Virus record (IMG/VR): IMGVR_UViG_3300031760_000016
Span: 43,455-107,454 of that record
DNA length: 64,000 nt
Origin: a virus
Lineage: Duplodnaviria; Heunggongvirae; Uroviricota; Caudoviricetes
Direction: 5' to 3' (one strand)
In this document: positions 7,328 to 64,000 of the stretch, in pieces
How the letters are laid out: each line of letters begins with the position of its first letter
Numbering within the stretch: the stretch's first letter is position 1
Translations under genes and position numbers: made by a program
The notes under the pieces: model-generated
Told to the model about the DNA's origin: nothing
What the model saw: only the letters and a program-made list of their open reading frames with translations
Database searches by the model: none

Positions 7328-7351
7328 TCTGGCGGCCTTTGTGCCGCCAGA
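7328..7351 (+). terminator. Putative terminator hairpin after the giant tail fibre gene
   Basis: tctggcggc-ctttgt-gccgccaga, 9-bp stem, then AT-rich sequence. Confidence 0.4.
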
Positions 7352-7398
7352 ATACAATTTAACATACATCAAAATGTGTAACGGAGGCGAAAAAAGGA

Positions 7399-10390: not shown

Positions 10391-10444
10391 TGAATGGTAT
10401 GACGCCGGGCAGCACGCCCGGCTTTTTGTATTGGAGGCAAAGGG

Positions 10445-11894: not shown

Positions 11895-11928
11895 ACGAGA
11901 ACAGAGACAACCATCTATGCAAAAACCG

Positions 11929-11958
11929 TTGACGATCTGAGTGTTTTTTGAGTATAAT
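11929..11958 (+). promoter_or_regulatory. Sigma70-like promoter (TTGACG - 18 nt - TATAAT) upstream of the ToxI leader region
   Basis: ttgacg at 11929-34 and tataat at 11953-58; read directly from the sequence. Confidence 0.4.
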
Positions 11959-12128
11959 AACCTTAGCTTATGATACCAGAGCTCGTTCAGGGAGTGAAAG
12001 TGGAGGCTCTGAATGGGGTTAGCGCTTAGCCGTTGCCTGAATAGGGTCGCCGAAAAAGAAAAGCGTATATATGCACTGAGCAAGCGAAATTCATGAAAAT
12101 GGCATTCTACTTAACATTAAATTCGCCA

Positions 12129-12157
12129 TTGACATTTCGCATGCATTGGAGTATAAT
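12129..12157 (+). promoter_or_regulatory. Near-consensus sigma70 promoter (TTGACA - 17 nt - TATAAT) driving the ToxI-ToxN locus
   Basis: ttgaca at 12129-34 and tataat at 12152-57 with a 17-nt spacer, 25 nt upstream of the first repeat. Confidence 0.65.
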
Positions 12158-12182
12158 AGTCTTGTCGGAAGAGATTCCGATA

Positions 12183-12294
12183 GCGGTGCGCCACTACCAT
12201 ATAAGTGTGGACTCAAAAAAGCGGTGCGTCCCAACCATGATAGGGAACCGAAAAAAAGCGGTGCTCCCCAACCAATAATCGGGGATTAAAAACA
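12183..12294 (+). ncRNA. ToxI-like type III antitoxin RNA: about 2.8 tandem 37-38-nt repeats
   Basis: Units start GCGGTGC at 12183, 12221 and 12258. Each unit ends in an A-run and the middles have diverged. Spurious ORF 12093..12278 overlaps this region. Confidence 0.6.
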
Positions 12295-12319
12295 GGAGGC
12301 GTTATCGCCTCCATTTTTT
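12295..12319 (+). terminator. Rho-independent terminator between ToxI repeats and toxN
   Basis: ggaggcg-ttat-cgcctcc hairpin followed by tttttt. This is the layout seen in ToxIN-type loci. Confidence 0.6.
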
Positions 12320-12334
12320 ACAGGAGAGTATTGC

Positions 12335-12859
12335 ATGGATTTCTTCTACGTAAGCGATGAGTATATAACATTTTTGAAGCAATTTGATTCGACTGTGCCG
12401 AACAATTATGGTGGATCAAGACCATATATTGGCATTGTCATTGAAATTGATGAAATAAAATATTATGCTCCTCTCACATCTCCGAAACCAAAGCACTGCA
12501 AAATGAAAAATGATAAAGACTTTAGACGAATCGACGGTGGAAAGCTTGGTGCCATCAATTTCAACAATATGATACCAGTTCCGGACACGGCTATAATACC
12601 GATTATAATTAACGACGTGTCCGACGAGCAATATAAAAGATTGCTACAAAACCAATATGCATTTATCCAGAAGGATAAGGATGCAATTAAGCGAACTGCT
12701 ACAAATCTAAGAAGTCTCATTTTATCCTCTCCTGACGAACTGACGTCGCATGAAGAAGAAATAAAAAAGCGATCATGTAATCTGCCTGAGTTAGAAAGAG
12801 CTATGGAGGAATACATTTCTTCGAGTAAAAAGAATAGGGAGCCGCCTACAATTATGTAG
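12335..12859 (+). CDS. toxN: ToxN/AbiQ-family type III toxin (endoribonuclease)
   Basis: 174 aa. N-terminus MDFFYVSDEYITFLKQFDSTVPNN...RPYIGIVIEIDEIKYYAPLTSPKPKH parallels ToxN (MKFYTISSKYIEYLKEFD...FIGIV...YLAPLTSPK). RBS aggagag sits 6 nt before the ATG. Confidence 0.8.
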   Translation: MDFFYVSDEYITFLKQFDSTVPNNYGGSRPYIGIVIEIDEIKYYAPLTSPKPKHCKMKNDKDFRRIDGGKLGAINFNNMIPVPDTAIIPIIINDVSDEQYKRLLQNQYAFIQKDKDAIKRTATNLRSLILSSPDELTSHEEEIKKRSCNLPELERAMEEYISSSKKNREPPTIM

Positions 12860-13106
12860 ATGACTCCCTAATTTTTTAGCGAAGTGCCACAATTGAACAC
12901 GCCGCAACGAGCCGTGTATTCAATTCTGGTACCTCTGCTGGATAATAATTATGCATGCTGTGAAAAACGAATTTTGCTACCTTGTTTTTCGTTATCAACA
13001 CAAGATGTGGTGGGTTAGGACTCCTGATTGGTGCTATATATTGCGATATGAAGGTCTGCAAAACCTTCATTCTCCGGTCCGAATCCGGATGGCACCTCCA
13101 AACTTT

Positions 13107-13139
13107 GGGAGTTCTGTTGAAGCGGGGCTCCCTTTTTTT
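13107..13139 (+). terminator. Possible terminator at the convergent junction of plus- and minus-strand blocks
   Basis: gggag...ctccc stem followed by ttttttt (13133-13139). Confidence 0.35.
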
Positions 13140-13145
13140 GTGCAA

Positions 13146-14075
13146 TCAGCCGATGACGCTTCGCATCGCATCGAGCTCATTTCCGTATAAATGGATGTAT
13201 GTGTTGTATGTTATTGCAACATCTGCGTGTCCCAGCAGTTTTGACAAAATCTTAACATCACATCCGCGCTCGTAGCAGTTGGTGGCGAAGGTATGTCTGA
13301 ATGCGTGGAGACCTTTGTAATTTATAACCAAATGTTTACAAAGTGCCTTGACGTGGAACTCCACTGAGGAATAGCTGTATGGCATGGACGGGTCATCCTT
13401 TTTGGCAAAGATGTAACCAATCGTTCCTTTGATCTCCGCCAACTTCTTCAACACTGTCAGGGCGTTTTCGCTCAACGGGATCATCCGCTTGCTGGTTTTG
13501 CTCTTGGGTGTTTCCTGGACGTACGTCACAGTTTTGGTTGACATGCGGATGAGGGTGCGTCTGATCCGGACGGCTTTCCGGTTCCAGAGGACGTCCTCCC
13601 ACTTGAGCGCCAATGCTTCGCCGATCCTAAGGCCGGCTTCGAGCATGAGCACGACAACGCCATACTGCTCCTTTTCCAATGTCATGCATTTCTGCAGCAG
13701 CATCTTCTGTTCGAACTCCGTGTACGTTTCGATTTCCTTCTTTGGCTTCGCAATCGATTCTTCGATAGGCAGCTTTACGCCGAGGTATACCGGCGTGGGA
13801 ACCTGCCCCTGGCTCAGGGCGTGCTTCCAGTATGCGGTCAGAAGGTTGAACTGCTTTTTGACCGTGGACATCGAATACGAATCTTCCACGAGGCGAACAA
13901 GGTAGACCTGCATTTCATAGCAGCCGATGTCACAGACGTTCATTTCGGCGATGGCGTACTTGCACATCAGGTTGTAGGCGATCATCAGCCTGTCGAAGCT
14001 GAGAACCTTGACCGATTTTTTCTTGTACACATCGAGCCATTCTCTGACAGCGGTCTTTAATTGTCTTTCTTCCAT
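13146..14075 (-). CDS. int: Tyrosine site-specific integrase
   Basis: 309 aa. C-terminal HAFRHTFATNCYERGCDVKILSKLLGHADVAITYNTYIHL carries the R..H..R..Y catalytic signature. Confidence 0.85.
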   Translation of the reverse strand: MEERQLKTAVREWLDVYKKKSVKVLSFDRLMIAYNLMCKYAIAEMNVCDIGCYEMQVYLVRLVEDSYSMSTVKKQFNLLTAYWKHALSQGQVPTPVYLGVKLPIEESIAKPKKEIETYTEFEQKMLLQKCMTLEKEQYGVVVLMLEAGLRIGEALALKWEDVLWNRKAVRIRRTLIRMSTKTVTYVQETPKSKTSKRMIPLSENALTVLKKLAEIKGTIGYIFAKKDDPSMPYSYSSVEFHVKALCKHLVINYKGLHAFRHTFATNCYERGCDVKILSKLLGHADVAITYNTYIHLYGNELDAMRSVIG

Positions 14076-19772: not shown

Positions 19773-21278
19773 TCACTCGCATCGCGACCAGCCGCAGGAC
19801 TTGCAGACGTCGCAGCCGCCCTCATGGACGATCTCGTTCCCGCACTTTGGACACAGGTGCTTTTCGCCCTTTGCGGGCTTGACCGTATCTTCGTGAACAT
19901 GCGGCTTGTGAGGATCGCAAACCTCAGGGGTTTCAGGCGATCCGATCTCAGACTGCATTTCCGTCCACATATCCATGAGCGCGTTACCAATGGCTACGGG
20001 GCAGCATGAACCCTTGGACGTGTCGTGCTTGGTGGCGGAGCGCACAGCGTAAGAGGGGCAGACGCCGCAGCTGTGAAGCTGGTCTACGATGGCGAATATA
20101 TCGCACCCGGATCTGGCGGCGAGTGAAATCATCCGGCTGAGGCCGACCATGTAATTGTTGCAGCCGCCGGAGGATCCCTTGCTGAGATAGGTTTCCAGAA
20201 GGTCGCCGTTTTCCGGGTCAAAGAATGCAGTACAATGCAGAGATCCGCACCCCGTGGTGAGCTTGCGCTTCTTGCCGACCACATTATCGGACGATTCGAT
20301 GACCGCGCCGCGAGGGAGTACGTCGATCTCATTGAGTTTTTCGCTCTTGGGAGTGGGTTCTGGAGCTGGATTTTCCTCTTTCTTCGTCTCGGTCGTCAGT
20401 ATGCCGGCCCGGCGGCAACCGTTTCTGAAGACGGTGATGCCCTTCAGGCCATTTTCCCAGGCGTCGAAATAGATCTTTTCAACGTCTTCAACCGTCGCTT
20501 CGAACGGAAGGTTGACGGTAGAAGAAATTGAGGCGTCGATGTAGCGCTGCCATGCCGCCTGCATGAGCACGCGGTCGTGCGGAGCGATGTCCGCCGAGGT
20601 CACGAAGAAATCCGGAAGTTCAGAGTCGTCCTTGAGGTTGTGGGCTTCCATGTAGGTTTTTACAATGGGAGTGTAAACCTTGTACTCCTTCGCCTCTTCG
20701 TACAGGCTTTCAGTTTTACGGGTGTAGAAGTTGGCAAAGATGGGCTCCAGGCCACCCGACACGCCGATCATCGTTGACAGGGTGCCGGTGGGCGCGATCG
20801 TCAAGAGCTGGCTGTTTCTCAGGCCATACTCATGTATGTATTTTTTGTTGTCTTCGGAGATATTCAGGGAGTAGAACGGTGACTTCGCAAGTTTTTGCTC
20901 GTCGTACATGGGGAACGGGTCGTCCTGCGCTGCGAGATTTGCCGAAGCATATACAGCGGAATTGAGGATGGTGTCGGCAACCGAACGGCAAATATCAATG
21001 GATTCAGGGCTGCCATACCTCACGCCCATTTTGATGAGCATGTCGGCAACGCCCATGACGCCGAGGCCGATCTGTCTCCAGTCCCTCACGCTGTCGCGCT
21101 GCTCCTGCAGCGGGTGGAGGGGAAGACCCTCATCGAGTACGTCGTTCAGGGCTACAGTCGCGATGAATGCGGCCTCGCCGAGTTCTTCAAAGTCAAGGTT
21201 GCCGTTTGAGTCAACAAATTCGGCGAGATTCAAACTACCGAGCAGGCAGCTCCCGCCGGGCGGCAACGGTTCCTCTGC
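19773..21278 (-). CDS. nrdJ: Class II (B12-dependent, NrdJ-like) ribonucleotide reductase, exon 2
   Basis: Begins AEEPLPPGGSCLLGSLNL, the RNR active-site loop following NPC. Contains TIAPTGTLS and a C-terminal 4-Cys ribbon (CPKCG...CDVCKSCG). No small subunit nearby. The ORF-track start at 21281 is an artificial TTG. Confidence 0.7.
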   Translation of the reverse strand, partial: AEEPLPPGGSCLLGSLNLAEFVDSNGNLDFEELGEAAFIATVALNDVLDEGLPLHPLQEQRDSVRDWRQIGLGVMGVADMLIKMGVRYGSPESIDICRSVADTILNSAVYASANLAAQDDPFPMYDEQKLAKSPFYSLNISEDNKKYIHEYGLRNSQLLTIAPTGTLSTMIGVSGGLEPIFANFYTRKTESLYEEAKEYKVYTPIVKTYMEAHNLKDDSELPDFFVTSADIAPHDRVLMQAAWQRYIDASISSTVNLPFEATVEDVEKIYFDAWENGLKGITVFRNGCRRAGILTTETKKEENPAPEPTPKSEKLNEIDVLPRGAVIESSDNVVGKKRKLTTGCGSLHCTAFFDPENGDLLETYLSKGSSGGCNNYMVGLSRMISLAARSGCDIFAIVDQLHSCGVCPSYAVRSATKHDTSKGSCCPVAIGNALMDMWTEMQSEIGSPETPEVCDPHKPHVHEDTVKPAKGEKHLCPKCGNEIVHEGGCDVCKSCGWSRCE

Positions 21279-22164
21279 CAAAGAGGTATTTAGACTATAT
21301 CTTCACCCTACGCACACATCTGTAGGGGGTTCGCACTCTTCAAATCGACCTGTATAGACCATAATTCATCGGACATCCATGCCGGTTGGCATTCATATCC
21401 GAGGTAAGCCTTATACAGCATTGAAGGGACGAGATAGGGGATGATCAAACTGAAGAAAATGTTGTAGCTCTCCTTCTTGATTCTGAGCCTTGTGAATTTC
21501 CCGCGCTTGACCAATGAGGTTTTGATGTCATAGTTTTCCAGAAGAGCATCCTGAATGGTCTTGATGTCGTCGTATGTATATCGGTCTGTGCAGAAATCAA
21601 CGCGCCTGTCGGTGATTGTACCTTTACTCCGTCCGACCAGGCAGACGTAACCGTCTGACATGTACCAGTTTGCCAGACCGTACGGCGTGAGCCAGTCGAG
21701 CGCTTCCCGGGTGATTATTCTGTGGCGGTAATCATCATAGAAGTTGTTGTATATTTTGGTAAAATACGGATGGGCGAGTATTATGTATTCCCAGTTCTCC
21801 TGATGATTGCACCAGCCTGAATAATGCTCCGGCGTGTAAATGACTTTGGATTTAAAACCCGAGCAGCTTTCGATTTCCTCTGCGATATTATTGATGAAGT
21901 CCTGATGAATGCTCTTGATTCTGAATGCCCGCTTATGGACACCCTTGTCTATCATCCCGTCACCGAGTATTAGTCCTGTTAAGAACCCTCTTAACTCTGA
22001 ACTGTTCATATGTTATAGCCCCCTATAACTGTTTTTTCGATTTGATTTTAGTCGTTGAACCTTCCTCATATTTCTGAGGCTTGGCTGCTGATTGCCTTTC
22101 GGTTTCCAGCAATTCGCGAACGATTGTTTTCATGAGATTGCTCTCAAGCCCTGCGCAAAAGTTC
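21279..22164 (-). mobile_element. Group I intron in nrdJ carrying a LAGLIDADG homing endonuclease ORF
   Basis: Exon 1 stops reading 5 codons after NPC; exon 2 resumes in frame after a G. Minus strand shows Q-like AAUCAGCAGCCAAGCC, R-like AAGGUUCAACGACUAA and, near the 3' end, S-like GAAGAUAUAGUC. The HEG ORF sits between them. Confidence 0.7.
21308..22009 (-). CDS. LAGLIDADG-family homing endonuclease (intron-encoded)
   Basis: 233 aa. GFLTGLILGDGMIDKG is a LAGLIDADG motif. Own start and stop inside the intron. Confidence 0.6.
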   Translation of the reverse strand: MNSSELRGFLTGLILGDGMIDKGVHKRAFRIKSIHQDFINNIAEEIESCSGFKSKVIYTPEHYSGWCNHQENWEYIILAHPYFTKIYNNFYDDYRHRIITREALDWLTPYGLANWYMSDGYVCLVGRSKGTITDRRVDFCTDRYTYDDIKTIQDALLENYDIKTSLVKRGKFTRLRIKKESYNIFFSLIIPYLVPSMLYKAYLGYECQPAWMSDELWSIQVDLKSANPLQMCA

Positions 22165-22971
22165 ACAGGGATTTGTGCCAGCGTATTCAAAGTTCTCATA
22201 TTCACTCAGCAGGTTCCAGCTGGAGATCATGTCCCAGAACAGCATTCCGGGTTCTCCCATGTCCCAGTTGTTCTCCGCGATGTGATGGAACAGCTGCCTT
22301 GCGTTTACGGTTTTGCGAATGGTTTCGCCGGTTTCGGAGCGCGTGAACCTGAGTTCAAACGGCTCATCGTTTTCCACGGCCTGCATGAATTCATCGGACA
22401 TGCGGACGGAAATGTTGGCTTTGGTGACGCGATCGAGATCCTTCTTGATGTCCACGAATTCCTCGATGTCCGGGTGATCACAGCTCAGAGAGAGCATCAG
22501 CGCACCGCGCCGGCCATTCTGGGAAATCAGCCCGGTAACCATGGAATACAGATCCATGAACGACACCGCGCCGGAACTCGCCTTTGCCGCGTTTCTCACG
22601 ACCGCGCCCCTGGGTGCCAGCTTTGACAGGTCAGTGCCGCATCCTCCGCCGTACGAATACGTGCGAGCCAGCTTCTTGGCGCAATCAAAGATGGATTCGA
22701 GGTTGTCCTCAGGAGGCGTGACGACATAGCAGTTACTATAGCTGATTTTCTTTCCTTCTTTTGTGAGTCCGCGGTTGGCGAGGATGCGCCCTCCAAACAG
22801 GAATTTCTTTTCCAGAATCAGGCGTTTGACCTGAGGGTCATTACCGCTCACTCTGGTCACCCATTCCAGAAAGCTTTCGCCATCATTGCGGTATTTCTGC
22901 TCCCAGATGTTTATGCCGATCTGATTATCAGCGCCGAGCCAATCCTGTACCGTCATTTCTCTGGCATCCAA
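22165..22971 (-). CDS. nrdJ: Class II ribonucleotide reductase, exon 1
   Basis: Blocks IWEQKY...LEWVTRVS, SNCYVV and GGGCGTDLSKLAPRGA; ends ...YAGTNPC at the intron insertion point. Confidence 0.7.
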
Positions 22972-29206: not shown

Positions 29207-29527
29207 TTAGTAGGGCTCAAAGGGGCTGTGTTGCGTTGCCTCCTCGTACAGAATCTTGTCGCCTTGGAAGTTCACGTCTATGTACTCGCCCTCGTTCATT
29301 TGCGGTCCGTTGCGGTTGAATCGAACGAACAGCTTTTTGTTTCCGCAGACAGTCCCGTCTCGCTGAATCTCTTCTGGGGACTTGTCCTGAATCATGATGA
29401 TTGTGCTCGCATTTCTGGCAATCTTGGCGCTGTCCGCGAGGCGGCCTGTTGAGGTGGCCTGCGCCGCGCCGATGCCGGCGATGTTGAGTTCACCACACAA
29501 TTTGTTCTTGACCGTCAGTGTGTTCAT
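29207..29527 (-). CDS. dnaB: Replicative helicase DnaB, exon 2 (C-terminal segment)
   Basis: 106 aa. LCGELNIAGIGAAQ ~ LAKELNVPVIALSQ; GRLADSAKIARNAS ~ SDLRESGSIEQDAD; VRFNRNGP ~ AKQRNGP in E. coli DnaB. The 5' boundary is approximate. Confidence 0.6.
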   Translation of the reverse strand: MNTLTVKNKLCGELNIAGIGAAQATSTGRLADSAKIARNASTIIMIQDKSPEEIQRDGTVCGNKKLFVRFNRNGPQMNEGEYIDVNFQGDKILYEEATQHSPFEPY

Positions 29528-29791
29528 CTGCTTTCACAGATGCCTGGACTATATCATCGCTGCTTTCAGCGCCGACCGCTTAGTCTCTGAACCTTCCCCT
29601 GTTCGGGGCTTGGCTGCTGATTGCCCATTGAATCGCGCTTAGGATTTGACCGTACGCTATCCCGTGAATTCTTTCCGCTTTCGCCGCCTTCGCGCTCACA
29701 ACTTTCGCTGTCACGCTTTGGCTTCACGGGCTTTAGGGTTTTCCAGCAATTCGATCGGTTTTTCACGGCATTGCTACCGTGGGACTGGCCA
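29528..29791 (-). mobile_element. HEG-less group I intron splitting dnaB
   Basis: About 264 nt between the two DnaB exon ORFs. Minus strand carries Q-like GGGCAAUCAGCAGCCAAGCC, R-like AAGGUUCAGAGACUAA and S-like GAUGAUAUAGUCC. It shares 19-nt and 16-nt blocks with the nrdJ intron. Exact splice junctions are not determined. Confidence 0.6.
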
Positions 29792-30832
29792 TCAATCCAC
29801 GATTGAACCTAGGGAGGAGTACACGGCGTAGGCGTCCATATCGGACCCCGTGCCCTTGAAGTAATCGATGATCAGGACGTCAATGCCCTGCGTGTGAAAG
29901 ACGCGCTTGACGTTTGTGTACATCGTGCTTTCATCGAAGATCGGCATGTACAGATGCGTAAAGCTCTGCTGTTTCAGCCATGCGATCGCCTCGCTGATTT
30001 TCGCGGCTTCCGCGTCGTCATATCTGCCGGATCGCAGACGTTGAAACTCGATTCCCGTCAGATGGGAAATCATACGACATGTGAAAAGCTTGCTGTTCAG
30101 TTCGCTGTCGATATAAAAAACCTTGCGGCCGGCGCGGAGAAGATCCACCGCGCAATTGAGCAGCATCATTGACTTGCCTTGCTTCTGTTCAGCACCGAAA
30201 ATGATGAGCTCGCCGCGCTCGATCATCACGTAGTTGTTCAGCGTCGGAAATTTGAACGGGAAAACCGCTGCCATGTCGGGATTCTGCCGGGCTTCGATTT
30301 CCGTCCAGTACTTCTCGATCACGTCTTTGTACTGCGGAATCTCGTTCGTTGTGGAAAACTCCATGATGACGTTGTCGAGCAGCGACGTGATCTGCTGTTC
30401 AATGTTGCTGCATTCGGAGTTAAAGCAGATGTTCTCGCACTCCACGAGCCTTTGGTAAGTGTGCCTCCTGAACGCCGCATCGATCACGGCGTTCGCGACC
30501 ATCATATAATCCTCCGGCTCGCTTCTGGCGATCAGCGACGCGTTGTCGAAGAGTTCCTGAAGCGACTGGTTGGTGATGATCGAGTTGACGTTCTCGCTCA
30601 CGTGCTCGGTGCCGCGTTTCATGTTGAGAAAGTTGATGATGTTGTAGGCGTCGATCTGCTCGATGCCCTTCTTGGCGAGTTCGCAGACGGCGTAGTAGAT
30701 GTAGGCGTTCTGCGGATTGGTAAAGTAGTTCGGTTTGAGTTGTTCTGAATGGAATGTCAGTTCCGGCGTCATGACCACCGAGGCGATTACGCCCGCCTCG
30801 GCTTCGACATTCTTGATGTCACCTACTGTCAA
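29792..30832 (-). CDS. dnaB: Replicative helicase DnaB, exon 1 (N-terminal domain + Walker A/B)
   Basis: 346 aa. GELIIFGAEQKQGKSMML (Walker A) and VLIIDYFKG (H2). The ORF terminates where DnaB should continue; the rest is in ORF 29207..29527. Confidence 0.7.
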   Translation of the reverse strand: MTVGDIKNVEAEAGVIASVVMTPELTFHSEQLKPNYFTNPQNAYIYYAVCELAKKGIEQIDAYNIINFLNMKRGTEHVSENVNSIITNQSLQELFDNASLIARSEPEDYMMVANAVIDAAFRRHTYQRLVECENICFNSECSNIEQQITSLLDNVIMEFSTTNEIPQYKDVIEKYWTEIEARQNPDMAAVFPFKFPTLNNYVMIERGELIIFGAEQKQGKSMMLLNCAVDLLRAGRKVFYIDSELNSKLFTCRMISHLTGIEFQRLRSGRYDDAEAAKISEAIAWLKQQSFTHLYMPIFDESTMYTNVKRVFHTQGIDVLIIDYFKGTGSDMDAYAVYSSLGSIVD

Positions 30833-34507: not shown

Positions 34508-34896
34508 TCAGTGAGCTCCTTTTCTAAAGTGGGTTGGTCGTATTGATAGAAGCCCAGGCGGATTTCGCTGAGCTTGTAGTAGTCGATGCAGCGAGGCTCG
34601 TCTGTATCGTCGTCCTCGCAATCCTCGTATACGGTCTGAAAGCCGAGCAGATAGTCGCCGTCGTTCAACATGATGCACTCCCGGATGATTCCGAGCGTGC
34701 AGTGCGTACTCTCAAACTGGCTTTCGTCGATGTACTTCTCCGCCATTTCCAGCGGCGTGAACATGCGTTTGAAAACCCAGAAGCGGAAAACGCGGTCTCT
34801 GTTGTCCAGCAAAAAAGTTTCGAAATCACCGTATAATTCCATGTGGGCATCACCTCCAAAAAATTGTTCTACTGAGACGGGCGCAACAATTGACAC
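34504..34896 (-). CDS. Hypothetical protein
   Basis: 130 aa. Confidence 0.35.
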   Translation of the reverse strand: MSIVAPVSVEQFFGGDAHMELYGDFETFLLDNRDRVFRFWVFKRMFTPLEMAEKYIDESQFESTHCTLGIIRECIMLNDGDYLLGFQTVYEDCEDDDTDEPRCIDYYKLSEIRLGFYQYDQPTLEKELTE

Positions 34897-34966
34897 ACCT
34901 CCAGAACCAAAATGTGTATATAAAAAAGCAATGGGCGATTAACCCATTGCTTCTGAACGTTCTTTC

Positions 34967-35992
34967 TTACTTGCCGTAGAATGCCTGTTTCCAGTTGTTG
35001 TAGTCCGCAGTGTATATCCGCTTGAATTTAGCGATCACGGATGACATTGGGAAGTTCTTGCTCGTCTTGTAGGGCTTGCCTTCGGCTTCGCGCTGGGCGA
35101 CAATGTCCTGAACGAAGCCGTCAATGTCCGGTTTTCTGCCGGCCTGCTCTTCGGTGTACCAGCGGTAGAACAGGCCGGACAGCCTGATCCTGTCAAAGGT
35201 CAGGGCGTGGGGGACATCATCTGTCAGAGCGCCGGCTTGTTCCGCATTCCGCATCAGCTTTGTCCAGGTGGGCATGAACGTGCTGGCGACCCAGCGGTCC
35301 GGGGAGACCTGGCGCTTGTTCAGCTTTCCACGCAGGATTTGATTGCCATCCGCCCGCTCGTAGCTCCGCGTGAAGCTGGAACTGCCGTTGACGCAGGGTT
35401 CTTCGAAGAGTGTCGCGTCGCAGGCGATCCTGAAGTCCATGAGGGAGGGGGAGTACATCGGGTAGGTCTTGCCGTTGTACGTGATCTGCTGTGTCACGAA
35501 GTTGACGTTCTCTTTGGTAACGAACGGAACGTCTTTGGAGTCAAAACCCATGAAGGCCAGCCACATGAAGACCCTGTAGATGACGTCGACGGTTCCGAGA
35601 AACGACGGCCTTGTGGTACAGTTCAGCGCCTTTTCCAGATGCTCCGGGGATGAAACCATTTCCCTGCGGATACCCTGTGAGTTGTCGACGACGACCTTGT
35701 GGATGCTGCTTCTGGTTTTGTCCAGACCGTTGCGCATGCGCCACGTAGCGTATTCCTTGTACTCCGACAGGAGCATGACGGCGTAAGCATGCTTGGAGCC
35801 GACAATCAGGTTGAAGGCATCCTGAAGGATGGTCAGTGGCTGCCGGGTGAAATCGGTGCCCCAGACCTTTTCGAACGGGACGAAATACTCGAGCGCCATG
35901 ATGGCCGTGTTTCGCGTCTTTGTCGACTTTTTGCCCTCCCGGTAGACGTCCTCGATAAACCGCTGCTGATCCGGATTGAGATCCTGAGGCAT
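34967..35992 (-). CDS. Hypothetical protein (start coupled to the MazF-like gene; weak resemblance to recombinase C-terminus)
   Basis: 341 aa. Its ATG overlaps the stop of the upstream MazF-like ORF (ATGA). Confidence 0.4.
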   Translation of the reverse strand: MPQDLNPDQQRFIEDVYREGKKSTKTRNTAIMALEYFVPFEKVWGTDFTRQPLTILQDAFNLIVGSKHAYAVMLLSEYKEYATWRMRNGLDKTRSSIHKVVVDNSQGIRREMVSSPEHLEKALNCTTRPSFLGTVDVIYRVFMWLAFMGFDSKDVPFVTKENVNFVTQQITYNGKTYPMYSPSLMDFRIACDATLFEEPCVNGSSSFTRSYERADGNQILRGKLNKRQVSPDRWVASTFMPTWTKLMRNAEQAGALTDDVPHALTFDRIRLSGLFYRWYTEEQAGRKPDIDGFVQDIVAQREAEGKPYKTSKNFPMSSVIAKFKRIYTADYNNWKQAFYGK

Positions 35993-36432
35993 TACGCAGG
36001 CACCCCCTCGTCATTCAGTTCCACGGCGCGTTGCCAAGCCTGAATAATTGATTCCATATCCATGAACGAGATGGCCGACGAAGCCATGATGCTTGATGCG
36101 GCGATCTGCTTCATGTATTTGCCAGAAAGGGTGGTGATGTAATCGCCCAGGTCGTCCTTTGAGATGCATTGCGGATTCTCGCAGAGCACCATGCTGTCCA
36201 TCGGAAGGCCGCTGTCGTGAGAAGAAATGAGGACGTGCGTGGGAAGCTCGAGCCGTTTCAGGCGGCTGGTCAGCGGCAAAACCACCAGGTTGGGACTATA
36301 CATGTTTCCTTTGTTGTTCTGGAAAATGACTGCCGGTCTGTTTCCGGACTGAACGCTGCCAGATCCGGTGAAAGTGGCGTAATAGACGTCGCCGATCCTT
36401 GGGATTCTGTTCAGAGTTGCCATTAACCTCAC
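35992..36432 (-). CDS. MazF/PemK-family toxin-like protein with about 35-aa C-terminal extension
   Basis: 146 aa. RIGDVYYATFTGSGSVQSGNRPAVIFQNNKGN...VVLPLTSRLKRLELPTHVLI parallels PemK/MazF (GDIYwvdf...G.E..G.RPalVvsnd...vvvvPlTS..k..lPthV). Confidence 0.65.
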   Translation of the reverse strand: MRLMATLNRIPRIGDVYYATFTGSGSVQSGNRPAVIFQNNKGNMYSPNLVVLPLTSRLKRLELPTHVLISSHDSGLPMDSMVLCENPQCISKDDLGDYITTLSGKYMKQIAASSIMASSAISFMDMESIIQAWQRAVELNDEGVPA

Positions 36433-36464
36433 CTCACACCAAATAATTTATACAGTATGTACAC

Positions 36465-36493
36465 AGTATACACTTCGGTGGGAGAAAAGTCAA
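36465..36493 (-). promoter_or_regulatory. Strong sigma70-like promoter (TTGACT - 17 nt - TATACT) with ATACTGT direct/inverted repeats, upstream of the MazF-like gene
   Basis: On the minus strand, ttgact is at 36493-88 and tatact at 36470-65. The overlapping element TATACTGTGTACATACTGTATA is operator-like. RBS GAGGTGAGG precedes the ATG. Confidence 0.55.
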
Positions 36494-36587
36494 TGGTAAC
36501 TTGAGAAAGTTTACGTGACCGCCCTTACGAGTAGCCCGTGACCAGCCCGCTCAAACAGACTGAAATTGAAAACACGATTTGCACCTC

Positions 36588-36830
36588 CTATGATTCATTG
36601 CCGTTGATCGCTTTGTTGATGCTCTCTGTTGCGTCCTCGAGGCTTGAGATGGCGTCCTCAAGAGAGTCGATCGCGTCCTCCATGCTCGTATATCTCTCGG
36701 TGCTCTGGAGGTTTTCGGGGATGTTGTCCATAGAATCAGATTCTTCGTCCCTGACCTCTTCTACGATTTCAATGGCCTGTCTGATCCTGAACAGCGCCGT
36801 CTCAAGTGATGTCCTTCGCTTCTTGTTCAT
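36588..36830 (-). CDS. Small acidic protein
   Basis: 80 aa, Asp/Glu/Ser-rich. Confidence 0.35.
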   Translation of the reverse strand: MNKKRRTSLETALFRIRQAIEIVEEVRDEESDSMDNIPENLQSTERYTSMEDAIDSLEDAISSLEDATESINKAINGNES

Positions 36831-36834
36831 GCTG

Positions 36835-37200
36835 TCACTCGCTTTTCAGATTTGATTTGGGATCCTCCGGAACGTTCTCGGTCTCTCCCTCAGGGCATTG
36901 CCAAGCCCATGCACAATAGGCATATTCGCCCTGTGTGGCTGTCTCTGGAAACGCCTGCGCCATGACCTCGCCCCACATTCGCATGGATACCATGAAGCAC
37001 ATGCCGTCGTCAAACATCGGGACACCGTGGTCGCCGTACTGATGATAATTGCCGGTGAATCTGTAGTTTTTCCGCCTGAGCTCCCGGACAACCTCCTTCC
37101 AGCGCTCGTAGAAAAGCTCGTCTTTTTCCGCGAATTTGAATCGGTTGTCATCCCAATCGACCCAGCTTACGATTTCCAAAGGCATCACCTCCGAATACAA
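36835..37200 (-). CDS. Hypothetical protein
   Basis: 121 aa. Confidence 0.35.
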   Translation of the reverse strand: MYSEVMPLEIVSWVDWDDNRFKFAEKDELFYERWKEVVRELRRKNYRFTGNYHQYGDHGVPMFDDGMCFMVSMRMWGEVMAQAFPETATQGEYAYCAWAWQCPEGETENVPEDPKSNLKSE

Positions 37201-37228
37201 TTGCTATATCGCACTGCGATATAATTAG

Positions 37229-37301
37229 AGCTGCCAACAGGAATCGAACCTGCAACACCCGGTTTACAGGACCGGTGCTCTGCCTGTTGAGCTATGGCAG
37301 C
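37229..37301 (-). tRNA. tRNA, anticodon loop CCUGUAA (probably Thr-UGU; position 33 is C, which is atypical)
   Basis: Manual fold: acceptor GCUGCCA/UGGCAGC, D arm GCUC/GAGC, anticodon stem CCGGU/ACCGG, T arm GCAGG-UUCGAUU-CCUGU. No encoded CCA. Confidence 0.55.
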
Positions 37302-37428
37302 ATAATCACTGTCTCCAACCTTTCCGACACCGCCATGGTTCAGCGCCTTACTCGTGAAGAGACAGTGATGACGGTTGTCGTTCTCTGTGGGGCGTCAGCC
37401 CACATCATCCAGCCGCAACGACTGGCGC

Positions 37429-37503
37429 TGGTGGAGAATATCGGATTCGAACCGACAGCCTTTAGCTTGCAAAGCTACTGCGCTACCGCTGCGCCAATTC
37501 CCC
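37429..37503 (-). tRNA. tRNA-Ala (UGC)
   Basis: Acceptor GGGGAAU/AUUCUCC with G3:U70, anticodon loop UUUGCAA, T loop UUCGAAU, encoded CCA. Confidence 0.7.
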
Positions 37504-37529
37504 AGAGGCTCCCGGTTTGGGAGCCATGT

Positions 37530-38648
37530 TTAAACTGTGAACCTGATCGGTCCGGTTTCCGGACACTTCTTGAGAACTACGCGGACAACGGGGTTTGAAT
37601 TCTCGGCCTCAGCTGCAGCGGCTCGTTTTTCCTCAGGGAGCTCATAGAAGTCATCTTCGTCCCATTTATCCATGTCGATGCCGTCCGTGACGACATACTC
37701 GCCGTCTACAATTGTTGCAAGAGCCGGCGTGAATGAAAAACCGAACTGATGTTTGCGTTCAAAGTTTCTCACGCTTACCCATTTGACGCTATTCATGTCA
37801 GTCATGTAGATCTTTTCGCGCCAGGCTTCATAGACAGAACCGTCCTTGCGAATGGCCATGATGTCGAAATAGAGGCAATCCGCCCTGGAAATATTCAGGT
37901 CGTTCAGGGTTTCCTTGAGCGTGTAGCCCTGATTGAGTTCAAAGGCGATGGCTCGGAGGTAGTCGTACGGCATGTCGACCGCGCCGGAAAGCGCAACCAG
38001 CTGGTCGATTTCTTCGGAATATTTGGGGTCGACCGTGTCTGTCAGGTACTCGCGAACCTCATCCTGACTGGGTGCTGTCATGGAGAAATGGTAGTGAAAG
38101 CGGCCCGGGCGGTTGAGCATGTAGGGACTCAGGTCGCTAAGGTTGTTGCAGGTGACGATGAAGAGCTTATGACCGCCCTCGATGCCGTCAAAGAGCGTCA
38201 ACATTTCGTCCTGCGGATTGTATTCCTTGGTTTTGGCAAAGGTCTTTTCGAACTCATCGAAGATGACCACGCAGTTCTGATCGATTGACGACAAAAAGTC
38301 AGAGATGCCCGGGATTGCCGTGTTCACGACGATGACCGGAAGCCCCTCCTGAATGGCGGCCTGAGCGAGCAGGCGGACGAACAGGCTCTTGCCAATGCCC
38401 TTCTGGCCGGACAGGAGCACGCCGAAGTTCCGCTTTGCGATGTGATAGGAACGCAAAACCTTGGCGACCTTCTCGTTGGACTTGCCGTAGATCTTTTCCT
38501 CTGTAACCGCCAGATCGTCGCGGTGGGTAAGGAAAAACCCCGACATATCGCTGAACTGGACGCCATATGAGGCGACCGGAAGTGCGTGATAGGTCTTTAC
38601 GGCGTCACCGTAGACCTGGAAACGGTTGCCGGAATTGACGATGTTCAT
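37530..38648 (-). CDS. AAA-family ATPase
   Basis: Walker A GQKGIGKS, Walker B VVIFDEFE, and NRPGRFHYHF (AAA second region of homology). Start moved to the internal ATG at 38648 (RBS AAGGAG 9 nt upstream) because the ORF-track start overlaps tRNA-Lys. Confidence 0.6.
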   Translation of the reverse strand: MNIVNSGNRFQVYGDAVKTYHALPVASYGVQFSDMSGFFLTHRDDLAVTEEKIYGKSNEKVAKVLRSYHIAKRNFGVLLSGQKGIGKSLFVRLLAQAAIQEGLPVIVVNTAIPGISDFLSSIDQNCVVIFDEFEKTFAKTKEYNPQDEMLTLFDGIEGGHKLFIVTCNNLSDLSPYMLNRPGRFHYHFSMTAPSQDEVREYLTDTVDPKYSEEIDQLVALSGAVDMPYDYLRAIAFELNQGYTLKETLNDLNISRADCLYFDIMAIRKDGSVYEAWREKIYMTDMNSVKWVSVRNFERKHQFGFSFTPALATIVDGEYVVTDGIDMDKWDEDDFYELPEEKRAAAAEAENSNPVVRVVLKKCPETGPIRFTV

Positions 38649-38671
38649 AGGCAAAAACTCCTTTATTTGAT

Positions 38672-38746
38672 TGGTGCGCCAGGTGGGAATCGAACCCACT
38701 GTGCCGGGATTAAAAGTCCCGTGCCTTACCGGTTGGCTACTGGCGC
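38672..38746 (-). tRNA. tRNA-Lys (UUU)
   Basis: Acceptor GCGCCAG/CUGGCGC, anticodon stem CGGGA/UCCCG with loop CUUUUAA, T arm GUGGG-UUCGAUU-CCCAC, encoded CCA. Confidence 0.7.
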
Positions 38747-38780
38747 GAAAGTGGAGGGCTTTTAAGCCCTCCGGGTAAAG

Positions 38781-38865
38781 CGGTCGTGGTAGGATTCGAA
38801 CCTACGGACGGTTTCCCGCCGGCAGTTTTCAAGACTGCTGTCATAAACCGCTCGGCCACACGACC
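38781..38865 (-). tRNA. tRNA-Ser (UGA), class II with long variable arm
   Basis: Acceptor GGUCGUG/CACGACC, D region GCCGAGCGGUU, anticodon stem GCAGU/ACUGC with loop CUUGAAA, long variable arm, T arm GUAGG-UUCGAAU-CCUAC. Confidence 0.65.
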
Positions 38866-51956: not shown

Positions 51957-53102
51957 TCAGGACTGTTCCTCAGATCTCAGCACGCTGCGGATCATCTTCA
52001 TGACGTTGACCCCGTGCTTTTCGTTAAACCACTTGATGAACTCCTCGACGTACTTCTTTTCGACCATCTTGTAGTAGCTGATCTGGCCGGAAAGCACATA
52101 GACGTCGTGGATATCCCACTTATCACCGCTCTGGTAATCCCTTATGAAGCTGGTGAGCGCCGCCTTGAGCTGGAGCTTCTTCTTGCGGCCGATGGTGATC
52201 TGATTGTCCCTGTTGAGCATGACGCCCAGATTCCAGTTCCTTCCGGCGCTGGATCCGTAGCGCGTCTTTTCGTCCTTCAGCTGGAACGGGGCGTTGAAGC
52301 TTGCCAGAACGGAATTGATATAGTCGCACATCTCCTTCGGATCGAAATCCTGCCTGTGCGAAAGCTGGATGTCATCGGCATACCGGGTGTAGACAAAACC
52401 CTTCTTGACCACGTCATTCATGATGCGGTGGTCGATGGGAACCATCATCAGGTTTGTCAGGGTGGGGGAGATCGGCGTTCCCTGCGGAAGCCCGCCGTCG
52501 AGGAAACACAGGCTCAGGGCTTTGGCAAGTTCATCCCTGCCGCCGGGAGCTTTGACGACTTCGCTGAACGGGAAGATGCGGGAAACCATATCGAACAGGA
52601 ATTCCTCAGTGGTGCTGCCGAAGAAATTGGAGAAATCCGTTTTCAGGAACCACCGGCTTTTGTTCTGCTGGTGGCGCTTGATGGCGTCGATGGTACTGCG
52701 CCCCTTGACGTAGGCGAAAGCCGCCGTGTGATACAGCGCACCGAAGTTGTTTTCCAGAATCGTGCGGAGCGTGCGCAGAGCGCCCATCAGTTCCGGCAGC
52801 GGTTCATCGATCTTGCGGTAACCCTTGGTGCGCTTGGGGATGTAAAACGTGTGGTAGAGCGAATGGCGATCCTTTTCAAACAGAAAAGCATAGGACGTAT
52901 TGAACGTGTGCAGAAGGCTGATGAGACCGGGGACGTTGAGATTGCGGGTGTAAGCCGGGCTGACCCAGTTCACCAGATGAGTCACCGTGCCGGTGATCTG
53001 GTGCTTGGGCGTGTCCCAGCCAAGCGGAACCCTGCCGAGAAGCACATCCTCAAACGAAAGCTGATGTGTTCTCGGCGTTTGCATGACGGTGATGTACGGC
53101 AT
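51957..53102 (-). CDS. Reverse transcriptase (retron/defense-RT-like, no maturase or endonuclease domain)
   Basis: RT motifs FLKTDFSNFFGS (motif 2), GLPQGTPISPTLTNL (motif 4), VYTRYADDIQL (YADD, motif 5), NLGV...ITIGRKKK (motifs 6-7). Start set to the ATG at 53102 with AAAGGAG 6 nt upstream; the ORF-track TTG start is at 53129. Confidence 0.75.
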   Translation of the reverse strand: MPYITVMQTPRTHQLSFEDVLLGRVPLGWDTPKHQITGTVTHLVNWVSPAYTRNLNVPGLISLLHTFNTSYAFLFEKDRHSLYHTFYIPKRTKGYRKIDEPLPELMGALRTLRTILENNFGALYHTAAFAYVKGRSTIDAIKRHQQNKSRWFLKTDFSNFFGSTTEEFLFDMVSRIFPFSEVVKAPGGRDELAKALSLCFLDGGLPQGTPISPTLTNLMMVPIDHRIMNDVVKKGFVYTRYADDIQLSHRQDFDPKEMCDYINSVLASFNAPFQLKDEKTRYGSSAGRNWNLGVMLNRDNQITIGRKKKLQLKAALTSFIRDYQSGDKWDIHDVYVLSGQISYYKMVEKKYVEEFIKWFNEKHGVNVMKMIRSVLRSEEQS

Positions 53103-53262
53103 ACGAACTCCTTTCTGATTGATCTGCAATCTGAATGCAGTGCGCGGTCTTCAGGGTAACCAGGAAGAGCTGAGGGATGTGATGATTGGGAGTCGAAACC
53201 CTGCCTGCTGAATCTCGCCGACTGCTGATGTGTCGGGAAAATGCGATCTTTTTCGACCTGTT

Positions 53263-53450
53263 GGAGCTTGGATGACCTAGAAGTGGTGGCTTTCAAGCTC
53301 GGACCGGTCGTCGCCGGATCAGCACCTGGGAGGAGAGCTCGATCGGCCGCCTTCCGCCGGCTGCCGCGGGTCGCCCCGTCTTCCCGACAATTTGTTACTC
53401 CGGATGTGATCACAGAGCATTGGGAAACCCAATAATGCATTGCAGACTTG
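53263..53450 (-). repeat. Non-coding element B, within the structured leader upstream of the RT
   Basis: Paralog of element A. Followed on the minus strand by hairpins, e.g. GCCCGCC-GGAA-GGCGGGC at 53450-53467 and AUUGGG-UUU-CCCAAU. Confidence 0.6.
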
Positions 53451-53472
53451 CCCGCCTTCCGGCGGGCTTGAA

Positions 53473-54237
53473 TCACATTTGAATCATGGACCGGAACAGT
53501 TCCAGAAGACCTTCGTGCTCATGGGTTTTTGAGGTTTCCAGACACCAGATGTGCTCGCCGGAATCAATTTCGATCACAGGGGCGTCCGGCTTGATGCGAA
53601 TCATGGGGTGGATGAGAAACACATCCCGGCACAAACCATGTGTCATGGAGCCAAAGTTGTATATGAGGATATGCCCTGCGTCCGAAACCCCGGTTCGAGT
53701 CATGATGTTCGAGTGGGGAACTTCGCCGATGGCCTGACTGAGCGCCGGGAGATACTCACCGTCCGGAACCTCGGGTACATCCACAAGCTCAGACTCGCTG
53801 GGGATCGAAACCTTGCAGGTGACCGTCTGCGCCCTGCCAAATTCCTTAATACTTCCGGGCGGAACGGCGATCGGAACCTCTCGGTCGATCAGCATGGCCA
53901 GCTCTTCGTCGTCAAAGAAGGTAAGGAAGCCGTCATACACGCCGTCCGGGCATCTGTCATACTGATGCATCGGAGTGTATGTAAAATCCTTGCCGCCGTT
54001 CAGCCACTGGAAGAGGTTGGAATGGGGAAAGTAGTTGTTGCCATAAGCGCGTTTTGCGGAAGACGGGCTTTCGAATTCGCGCCTGTCGAAGGAACGCCTG
54101 CCGACAGACCTCATGGCGAAAAGGTCATTGGAATCGGAAACCTTTTTCCAGAGAATGTCATCGTTGTTATCACCCAGATTGACGCCGATGTTCAGCTTGG
54201 TTCCCAGCGGCAGTTCACTGATCGTCAATATGCTCAC
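53473..54237 (-). CDS. Hypothetical protein
   Basis: 254 aa, no recognisable motif. Lies between the E1-like gene and the RT leader. Confidence 0.45.
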   Translation of the reverse strand: MSILTISELPLGTKLNIGVNLGDNNDDILWKKVSDSNDLFAMRSVGRRSFDRREFESPSSAKRAYGNNYFPHSNLFQWLNGGKDFTYTPMHQYDRCPDGVYDGFLTFFDDEELAMLIDREVPIAVPPGSIKEFGRAQTVTCKVSIPSESELVDVPEVPDGEYLPALSQAIGEVPHSNIMTRTGVSDAGHILIYNFGSMTHGLCRDVFLIHPMIRIKPDAPVIEIDSGEHIWCLETSKTHEHEGLLELFRSMIQM

Positions 54238-54259
54238 CTCCTTCGAGAATCGGGATTGA

Positions 54260-54955
54260 TCAGAACGCGTCCAGCTGGTAGGTGAAGGCGTCCAACAGGA
54301 TCAGCTTCTTGATGCCGTTGCCCTTGGCAAAGTTAATGAAGTTGGAAACCCCCAGCGCCACGATCGCCTTGACCGTGGAGCAGACGGACAGGGTCAGGTT
54401 GCAGGCGGAAACCGGCGTTTCGGCCTTGGCTTCATCGTGGGTGAACTGCATCGAGTTCAGAAACGCTTCCACCATCCTGCGATCCTCCCAGTTGGCGGCG
54501 TAATGCTGGGCGTCGGTCAGCCGCATCCGGAAGTCGAACATGCCCTTGATGAACAGGTTGTCCTTGTTGGCGGTGGCGATCTCGCGGCGCAGATCGATGT
54601 TGTCCACGCAGAGGAACACATAGCCGCTCAGCTTCTGGCCGACATAGCCCTTCTCAACCAGTTTCAAATCCCGGTCGATATCGGGATTTATCTTGTGCAG
54701 ATACTCGGCCAGCGCCTGAACCTTGGTCTTGCCGATGTCTTCCTGAGTGAACAGCTGGTTGGCAATGTTGTGGGGCTCGACGAAATCGAAGTCGTACAGG
54801 GTGATGCGGGTGACGCCGTAGCGCACCAGATTCTCAGCGACCGTGGAGCCGATCGCGCCGCAGCCGATGATGTGGATGCGCTCAGGGCACTTTTCAGGCT
54901 GGAAAAACTCGTAGCTCTTTGCCAAATCGATCATGAATTCAATCCTCCCTGTCAA
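54260..54955 (-). CDS. ThiF/MoeB/E1-like adenylyltransferase
   Basis: 231 aa. IHIIGCGAIGSTVAENLVRYGVTRITLYDFDFVEPHNIANQ is the Rossmann GxGxxG plus the D.D.VE.SNLNRQ ThiF signature. Confidence 0.7.
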   Translation of the reverse strand: MTGRIEFMIDLAKSYEFFQPEKCPERIHIIGCGAIGSTVAENLVRYGVTRITLYDFDFVEPHNIANQLFTQEDIGKTKVQALAEYLHKINPDIDRDLKLVEKGYVGQKLSGYVFLCVDNIDLRREIATANKDNLFIKGMFDFRMRLTDAQHYAANWEDRRMVEAFLNSMQFTHDEAKAETPVSACNLTLSVCSTVKAIVALGVSNFINFAKGNGIKKLILLDAFTYQLDAF

Positions 54956-63808: not shown

Positions 63809-64000
63809 CTGCGGGGGGCGTTGCCGTCCGTCCGTTCTTTGTGCGGGGGGCGTTGCCGTCCGTCCGTTCTTTGTGCGGGGGGCGTTGCCGTCCGTCCGTT
63901 CTTTGTGCGGGGGGCGTTGCCGTCCGTCCGTTCTTTGTGCGGGGGGCGTTGCCGTCCGTCCGTTCTTTGTGCGGGGGGCGTTGCCGTCCGTCCGTTCTTT
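63809..64000. repeat. Perfect 32-nt tandem repeat (GTGCGGGGGGCGTTGCCGTCCGTCCGTTCTTT), 6 units, truncated by the window edge
   Basis: Units at 63809 (first 2 nt differ), 63841, 63873, 63905, 63937 and 63969. All others are identical. Confidence 0.9.

Follow-up and report, generated by a model that had tools for sequence, protein, structure and literature searches.

Organization of the locus

The stretch of DNA analyzed here (the window: 64,000 nucleotides (nt), positions 43,455 to 107,454 of the IMG/VR virus record IMGVR_UViG_3300031760_000016, Caudoviricetes) carries on its minus strand two overlapping genes. The first encodes a C-terminally extended endoribonuclease of the MazF/PemK fold, here called MazF*, and the second a protein of 341 amino acids (aa) that is homologous to the integrase-fold repressors SroF of phage phi3T and MrpR (YopR) of SPβ. 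The two genes recur together in related gut viruses, and they may form a reverse-order toxin-antitoxin (TA)-like module in which the repressor homologue replaces MazE. MazF and the SroF/MrpR-type repressor are themselves known kinds of protein; the toxin-regulator pairing, the partner and the extension are new. The features of the pair are as follows.

34967..35992, minus strand: 341-aa SroF/MrpR(YopR)-like integrase-fold protein (homology, family profile, AlphaFold2 (AF2) and Foldseek)
35992..36423, minus strand: MazF*, C-terminally extended MazF/PemK-fold endoribonuclease, 143 aa (Pfam, PHROG, alignment, AF2)
35995..36060, minus strand: family-specific C-terminal extension of MazF*, residues 122-143, ~22 aa (alignment, AF2, conservation)
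36268-36270, minus strand: T52 codon (alignment to B. subtilis MazF)
36337-36339, minus strand: R29 codon (alignment to B. subtilis MazF)
36427-36435, minus strand: ribosome-binding site GAGGTGAGG, 3-4 nt before the ATG at 36423 (read off the sequence)
36449..36470, minus strand: 22-nt element TATACTGTGTACATACTGTATA, candidate operator, which overlaps the -10 hexamer as well as the likely +1 and has one UACAUA
36465..36493, minus strand: sigma-70-type promoter TTGACT-17-TATACT (10/12 consensus matches)

The start of MazF* is the ATG at 36423, giving an open reading frame (ORF) of 36423..35992; a GTG at 36432 is an improbable start because it lies inside the ribosome-binding site. The stop codon of MazF* overlaps the start of the 341-aa gene by 1 nt. 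An overlap had been reported at this point in the first-pass annotation, a reading of the sequence alone, but it takes the form TAATG and not ATGA. A public protein collection holds a 143-aa protein identical to MazF* (P0001), from a 116-kb contig.

The toxin and its C-terminal extension

MazF* matches Pfam PemK_toxin (PF02452) with E=2.7e-21 and 76.3 bits (cut-off 23.1) and PHROG 1936, "MazF-like growth inhibitor", with E=8e-28, and its nearest solved relatives are the S. aureus and B. subtilis MazF proteins (E about 1e-17 to 1e-18). A homologue search returned 439 proteins at E<=1e-5, and the conservation figures given here use the best 120 of these, which are 131-158 aa long, cover 87-100% of the query and all have the C-terminal tail. 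The AF2 model built on these 120 homologues has a mean predicted local distance difference test (pLDDT) score of 92, and Foldseek superposes it on the B. subtilis MazF-RNA structure 4MDX as an SH3-like barrel with a template modelling (TM) score of 0.93 and a root-mean-square deviation of 1.4 Å over 114 columns. The toxin fold proposed from the sequence is therefore confirmed. R29 and T52 of MazF* align to R25 and T48 of the B. subtilis enzyme, which we take, from the 4MDX literature, to be its catalytic pair; both are invariant (120/120 homologues), and the degenerate fold lacking these residues that had been considered is not seen. MazF* is a genuine MazF with intact catalytic residues, and it would probably act as an RNase and a toxin. 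PADLOC and NCBIfam models gave no match to MazF* or to its 341-aa partner.

The tail had been described as a Ser/Ala-rich segment of ~35 aa absent from canonical MazF. An extension does exist, but it is shorter (residues 122-143, ~22 aa) and is a conserved helix, and the Ser/Ala-rich stretch (about residues 108-121, with the end ISF) aligns to the canonical C-terminus of B. subtilis MazF (IDF). The extension is predicted as a packed helix at 123-138, with block pLDDT values of 97 (121-130) and 88 (131-140). W130 and N137 are each present in at least 90% of the 120 homologues, and the pair of residues L136-N137 is likewise conserved. Residues 122-143 are covered by none of the solved MazF structures.

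Two origins for this tail were considered and rejected. It shows no similarity to a MazE hidden Markov model (HMM) or to any MazE in the PDB, and it is helical and packed, which argues against a fused MazE. A phmmer search of 1.84 billion representative proteins with the 43-aa tail returned only fragments of the same family and tetratricopeptide repeat (TPR)/CHAT proteins. The TPR matches arise through a helix-B-like A-W/Y-x-x-A-x-x-L-N motif summed over repeats, and the tail was not retained as a module reused elsewhere; its likeness to TPR repeats is treated as convergent.

Longer forms of MazF exist as well. Some homologues of 185-200 aa in Clostridia metagenome-assembled genomes (MAGs), at loci L100, L103, L136, L137, L140 and L169, have an unrelated C-terminal extension, and some homologues of this length are preceded by a 53-54-aa membrane peptide in place of MazE. 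BFVD also contains phage PemK-like proteins of 170-266 aa.

The 341-aa partner

The 341-aa protein had been listed as unknown, and taken alone it matches no Pfam family (PF22822 gives no match at E<=1) and no PDB sequence. It is, however, homologous to the proteins encoded downstream of other MazF homologues, with 31-37% identity and E-values of 9e-38 to 1e-57; one of these is a PF22822-bearing homologue (31% identity, E=9e-38). Among these proteins, 9 of 10 match PF22822 (MrpR_N_CB, the N-terminal core-binding domain; best 1.8e-15), and the family profile finds phi3T SroF (9RD5) at E=0.001 and, weakly, YopR. No homologue of the partner occurs in the deposited phage genomes of INPHARED (50,697 records).

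Structure gives the same picture. The AF2 model of the 341-aa protein has a pLDDT of 91.7, and its six best PDB matches in Foldseek are 9RD5, 9RGL, 8A0A, 8BJ6 (two chains) and 8BPZ, with E-values of 1e-7 to 1e-5. These correspond to phi3T SroF-DNA, SroF-Sar, SPβ MrpR and three YopR chains, and SroF, MrpR and YopR outrank Tn1549 Int, XerA, XerD, lambda Int and Cre. The global TM-score of the model to SroF/MrpR is only about 0.39-0.55, at a sequence identity of 11-14%.

The motif G149-F-D151 of the 341-aa protein aligns to G-L-R in the TGLR Arg-I motif of the integrase encoded in the window, at an hhalign probability of only 0.2%, and in this low-confidence alignment an Arg occupies the position of D151 in 1 of 10 partner family members. 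The invariant G149 corresponds to G136 of MrpR, and the G136E substitution in MrpR gives the heat-inducible SPβ c2 phenotype (PMC10516654). Overall, profile and model identify the 341-aa protein as a homologue of the SroF/MrpR(YopR)-type integrase-fold repressors, with DNA binding and repression as its predicted activities.

Pairing of tailed MazF with the MrpR-like gene

Loci reached through individual homologues have a common layout, in which the gene of a PemK protein of about 143 aa precedes that of an MrpR_N_CB protein of about 310-330 aa. In IMG/VR, the tailed MazF has an MrpR-like ORF as the next gene on its strand in 79 of the 80 loci that carry it; the gap between the two genes is -43 to +31 nt in 78 loci and 317 nt in one. 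After clustering at 90% identity, 34 of 36 clusters are paired. Seen from the repressor side, a tailed MazF lies directly upstream in 52 of 57 viral loci.

The pairing extends to bacterial genomes. Among GTDB species representatives, all five complete tailed MazF copies are paired, in Clostridia MAGs assigned to Ruminococcus, Roseburia, Oscillospiraceae and other Clostridia, and a sixth locus (L098), which is cut by a contig end, has a truncated MazF beside a partial MrpR-like ORF. The 74 canonical MazF loci of the same genomes have no MrpR-like partner (0/74); most have a short upstream ORF, which is recognizably MazE-like in 36. The short, tailless MazF proteins of the phages PMBT24, Perkons and Satyr are likewise without an MrpR-like partner.

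The full-length tail coincides with an adjacent MrpR-like gene except in two lineages. In L008 the gene directly after an intact tailed MazF encodes a 143-aa protein whose N-terminal part is a helix-turn-helix (HTH), and in L087 it encodes an unrelated 156-aa protein, with no adjacent MrpR-like gene in either case. By analogy, the HTH protein of L008 would be an instance of the partner swapping seen in TA modules. The repressor occurs without MazF in five lineages, and one further lineage has a frameshifted MazF.

A search of the literature found no paper that pairs SroF/YopR with a phage MazF/PemK gene. No MazF in INPHARED covers the tail, the best coverage being 74% at an identity of <60%.

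Two further observations concern these loci. Of 35 representative tailed-MazF loci, 10 have a tRNA-Gln(UUG) gene ~60-90 nt downstream of the MrpR-like gene, among them L010 (6453-6526), L067 (6680-6752), L068 (7455-7529), L070, L075, L086, L093, L095 and L096, and all but one of the 10 have no other tRNA within 6 kb. The copies have diverged, with a mean column identity of 81% and substitutions on either side of stems, and the position has therefore been kept through a long period of divergence; the tRNA may be attP-related, act as a processing signal or be functionally linked to the RNase. In addition, a 57.7-kb viral contig (L005) has two divergent four-gene cassettes, at 4444-7413 and 10036-12432, each consisting of a divergent HTH+S24 repressor, a ~110-aa protein, a tailed MazF and an MrpR-like protein. 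Identity is 62% between the MazF copies and 47% between the repressors, and the ~110-aa proteins show no relationship to each other.

Promoter, repeats and upstream region

The strong promoter proposed for MazF*, TTGACT-17-TATACT, is borne out. Of 34 dereplicated relatives, 30 have a promoter with at least 10/12 matches at a distance of 32-72 nt before the first MazF residue in the alignment; therefore, it is a conserved property of the module and not a chance match.

The ATACTGT repeats, described as operator-like, are less certain. Two direct copies within the 22-nt element (36452-58 and 36463-69, 11 bp apart) do overlap the -10/+1 region, but the heptamer count is unremarkable (5 copies in the window versus 3.6 expected), and the pair is absent from the relatives, which have their own, different repeats at the same place. 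For these two reasons the ATACTGT pair is no more than plausible as an operator, one that would be specific to this lineage. The 22-mer with both copies occurs once in the window, and a search of the 64 kb for dispersed operators found no related 10-14-mer.

The absence of an upstream antitoxin holds. The canonical mazEF layout, with a MazE gene directly upstream of mazF, is not present at this locus: the spacer upstream of MazF* (155-164 nt) has no ORF of at least 20 aa wholly inside it, and the MazE HMM, for which 36 ORFs preceding canonical mazF genes were used, has no match in the window or in 94 tailed-MazF loci (best E=1.4). An RNA antitoxin in the spacer was rejected, as a tRNA is the sole above-threshold Rfam match in 34800-37300; the spacer and leader RNA fold no better than shuffled sequences, and no terminator was found there.

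Genomic context and phage lifestyle

The window phage is temperate, because it carries a tyrosine integrase gene (13146-14075, minus strand). The MazF*-partner pair lies just upstream of genes for ERF, PD-(D/E)XK, DnaB, DnaG and PolIII-alpha. The content of the window is SPβ-like, with PolIII-alpha, DnaB/DnaG, ERF, a ribonucleotide reductase (RNR) gene interrupted by a LAGLIDADG ORF, and several tRNAs; YonV_C occurs in a relative. The carriers are an uncultured family of large temperate SPβ-like phages of gut Clostridia, and the module is common in human and animal gut viromes.

The first-pass annotation placed the toxin gene in a recombination/replication block, and ERF, DnaB and DnaG genes are indeed adjacent, but it missed that this is also the immunity region. 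Because the partner is an SroF/MrpR-type homologue, the module belongs to the lysis-lysogeny/immunity region and not merely to the replication block. Many relatives have, ahead of the module, the gene of a ~110-aa protein and a divergent HTH+S24 (CI/LexA-like) or HTH+M78 (ImmR/ImmA-like) gene, and such a divergent repressor cassette is an immunity-region signature. The window phage has no divergent CI-like cassette, and its module comes directly after the gene of an 80-aa protein:

36588..36830, minus strand: acidic coiled-coil protein of 80 aa (phrog_4068), conserved upstream backbone neighbour

The backbone shared by these phages runs from this acidic protein through MazF* and the MrpR-like protein to ERF, a 123-aa protein, PD-(D/E)XK, DnaB and DnaG. 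The 80-aa protein is found upstream in 89 of 94 tailed-MazF loci, at a distance of 0.1 to about 2.4 kb and with other genes between, and it is probably not part of the module.

Comparison with known systems

MazF* has the same fold as the MazF toxins (EndoA/EndoAI; 4MDX, 4ME7, 4MZM) of B. subtilis and S. aureus, with a TM-score of 0.93 and 35-38% identity, and it shares with them the catalytic Arg/Thr pair and most core residues. Unlike MazEF, the module has no nearby MazE, has the toxin gene first and is phage-borne, and it adds the conserved C-terminal helix (122-143) and the 341-aa integrase-fold partner. Other solo MazF proteins of phages, collected in PHROG 1936 (Lactobacillus, Enterocloster, Psychrobacillus and other phages), are also phage-borne and have no annotated MazE; some members have C-terminal extensions, but the deposited genomes have neither the MazF* tail nor the 341-aa partner.

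The partner is of the same fold class as SroF of phi3T and MrpR/YopR of SPβ, encoded in the yopM-R (sro) operon, which are its best structural matches. The recombinase Arg I appears lost in the partner family (low-confidence alignment), and the Gly equivalent to MrpR G136 is kept. The repressor operon of SPβ and phi3T is also wired to MazF, in that the yopM-R/sro operon encodes, together with the repressor, the YopM homologue phi3T_93, which binds MazE and thereby releases MazF (PMC10769878; PMC10516654; bioRxiv 10.1101/2023.04.27.537455). In phi3T, the activity of the host's MazF is needed for lysogenization and dampens induction (bioRxiv 10.1101/2023.04.27.537455; PMC10769878), and AimX and YosL are MazE-like inhibitors (bioRxiv 10.1101/2023.04.27.537455; PMC10769878; PMC10516654). 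However, the Bacillus phages use the MazF of the host and encode none, whereas here mazF itself adjoins the repressor gene, and arbitrium genes were not identified in this phage.

With the reverse-order type II systems HigBA, MqsRA and HicAB, the module has in common the toxin gene in first position, overlapping or coupled frames, a DNA-binding downstream partner (predicted in the present case) and a strong promoter with repeats at -10/+1. The conserved adjacent partner in one operon that characterizes reverse-order TA systems is also found here, in 34 of 36 lineages and 79 of 80 viral loci.

Proposed mechanism and alternative explanations

Of the three options raised in the first-pass annotation, a reverse-order pair with the 341-aa protein fits best, the gene pair being near-invariant, but the antitoxin role of that protein is one that we infer. 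We therefore read the locus as a reverse-order TA-like module in the immunity region, in which the SroF/MrpR-like protein replaces MazE as DNA-binding partner or neutralizer, and put the probability of this reading at about 0.5. Two genes with their own promoter, MazF* and then the SroF/MrpR-type repressor, would be translationally coupled, and the repressor-like protein would take the role of MazE by docking on the C-terminal helix of the MazF* dimer, which would restrain, or at least tether, the RNase. The complex could then bind the repeats at the module promoter (here the ATACTGT pair) and regulate its own synthesis. Reverse-order type II operons, higBA and mqsRA among them, are autoregulated on the same principle. 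RNA cleavage would in this way be coupled to the state of the phage repressor: if the repressor were titrated, inactivated or lost, free MazF* might cut phage and/or host transcripts and so tip the choice between lysis and lysogeny, an effect that host MazF has in the case of phi3T, or penalize loss of the prophage. Physical binding, neutralization, the operator, the RNase activity and the biological output are the parts of this scheme that we infer.

Several points weigh against this reading. The window copy of the partner itself reaches no Pfam model, and we know of no precedent, in fold or in size, for a 341-aa integrase-fold antitoxin. The ATACTGT repeat has modest statistical weight, and the 22-nt element is found nowhere else in the window. 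In view of L008, L087 and the five lineages without MazF, neither partner is strictly obligatory. The syntenic backbone is common to all these phages, and therefore the co-occurrence of the two genes is partly a matter of common descent; the correlation between MazF and partner pairwise identities (r=0.89) is not independent evidence. Lastly, where relatives have a divergent CI-like repressor, the module stands in the place of an early rightward operon, and it could therefore be early lytic. Nevertheless, the shared backbone by itself does not account for the strict link between tail and partner, set against other MazF proteins.

The module bears directly on a current question in SPβ/arbitrium biology, namely the connection between MazF activity and the SroF/MrpR repressor. 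If MazF* and its partner interact, they would provide a compact and directly testable system for that connection and would add an integrase-fold DNA-binding protein to the antitoxin repertoire. The pairing also gives a functional handle on a module that is common in human and animal gut viromes and absent from the INPHARED phage genomes searched.

A bolder version of the scheme, possible but put forward only tentatively, is that the master lysogeny repressor is itself the antidote of the phage MazF, held via the C-terminal helix, such that removal of the repressor would unleash the RNase. Such removal could come about when an antirepressor binds at induction, when the repressor is diluted after infection, or when the prophage is lost. 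In some of the lineages the tRNA-Gln(UUG) may be a third component, serving as a resistant replacement for a cleaved host tRNA or in transcript processing. If so, MazF-dependent control of lysis and lysogeny would be contained in one operon, as opposed to the indirect control via host MazEF in Bacillus arbitrium phages.

One might instead think of MazF* as an un-neutralized regulatory RNase of narrow specificity that replaces reliance on host MazF and trims lytic or competitor transcripts in favor of lysogeny and superinfection protection, the repressor being merely a co-regulated neighbour and any anti-MazF lying elsewhere. MazF promotes lysogeny of phi3T and inhibits its induction without killing the cell (bioRxiv 10.1101/2023.04.27.537455; PMC10769878), and the tailed MazF of L008 and L087 has no repressor beside it. 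The hexamer UACAUA, moreover, occurs 29 times on the coding (minus) strand of the window versus 6 times on the other, an excess of ~5x, and is absent from the coding sequences of the pair, where about 0.8 would be expected. This idea is nonetheless doubtful: it leaves the association of the tail with an adjacent repressor gene unexplained, and the MazE HMM detected no MazE/AimX-like inhibitor in the window. Nor do the operons significantly avoid UACAU or another 5-mer, as judged from synonymous-codon shuffles of 34 dereplicated operons (47 kb) and their flanks (262 kb). The operons show no depletion of UACAU (63 observed versus 58.5 expected); ACAUA is lower in operons than in flanks (z=-3.3), a difference that is lost after correction for 1024 tests; and the most depleted operon 5-mers (GGNCC, GATC, CTAG and those containing TTA) are depleted in the flanks as well.

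A structural role is improbable. MazF proteins are obligate dimers, and MazF* might accordingly serve as a co-repressor, a dimeric scaffold that places two monomeric repressors on paired repeats, with its RNase activity secondary or lost. MrpR is monomeric and its binding to specific DNA is only weak in vitro, and its authors raised the possibility that extra factors make it specific in vivo (PMC10516654). The two repeats 11 bp apart and the correlation of the tail with pairing are consistent with such a scaffold. However, the 120 homologues show no variation in the catalytic Arg/Thr pair or in most of the core residues that MazF* has in common with B. subtilis MazF, which argues for a retained enzymatic function.

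We also give little credence to an early lytic function in host takeover or anti-defence, with MazF* breaking down the mRNA or tRNA of the host after infection and the integrase-fold protein acting as an early regulator and not as a lysogeny repressor. In relatives the module lies rightward of the divergent HTH+S24 repressor and upstream of the genes for recombination and replication, PHROG 1936 belongs to the category "moron/host takeover", and phage tRNA genes occur nearby in the window and, as tRNA-Gln(UUG), after the pair in 10 of 35 lineages. On the other hand, the closest structural relatives of the partner are lysogeny repressors, the pair has its own promoter, independent of the divergent one, and the window phage has no divergent CI-like gene.

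Inhibition of MazF* by its own tail, whose acidic, Trp-containing end is superficially like MazE C-termini, or by the acidic 80-aa protein so often found upstream, both suggested by the first-pass annotation, is very improbable, given a confidently packed helix without MazE similarity whose only non-family matches are TPR repeats, and an 80-aa family that is variably distant from MazF* and widespread in unrelated phages (of Microbacterium, Rhodobacter, Pseudomonas, Bordetella, Listeria and Faecalibacterium), those of Microbacterium, Rhodobacter, Pseudomonas and Faecalibacterium all being without the tailed MazF.

Other features of the window

A tRNA-Cys(GCA) gene (13030-13100, plus strand) adjoins the integrase gene at a switch of gene orientation, and 13030-14075 is likely the attP region. 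Upstream of the module, four tRNA genes (Thr-UGU, Ala-UGC, Lys-UUU and Ser-UGA; 37228-38865, minus strand) bracket an AAA+ ATPase gene (37530-38699, phrog_2376); linkage of this tRNA cluster to the module was rejected, as tRNAs upstream of the module are not a conserved neighbour in the relatives.

The RNR large-subunit gene (19773-22971, minus strand) is split into ORFs at 22144-22971 and 19773-21281, which are separated by the LAGLIDADG ORF (21308-22009), an insertion of the intron or intein type such as the SPβ bnrdE/F genes also have. The DnaB-like helicase (29207-30832, minus strand) is likewise present as two ORFs, 29792-30832 and 29207-29527. Because both match one 459-aa DnaB of the relatives, a ~264-nt insertion, a frameshift or an intervening element must lie at 29528-29791.

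Finally, a reverse transcriptase gene (RVT_1, 51957-53129) stands beside genes for DUF6273 and ThiF-family proteins (51957-54955, minus strand) and may belong to a diversity-generating retroelement or a retron-like unit, and a perfect 32-bp tandem repeat, the unit of which contains GCCCCCCGCACAAAGAACGGACGGACGGCAACG, is present in at least 6 copies at 63810-64000 and continues past the end of the window.

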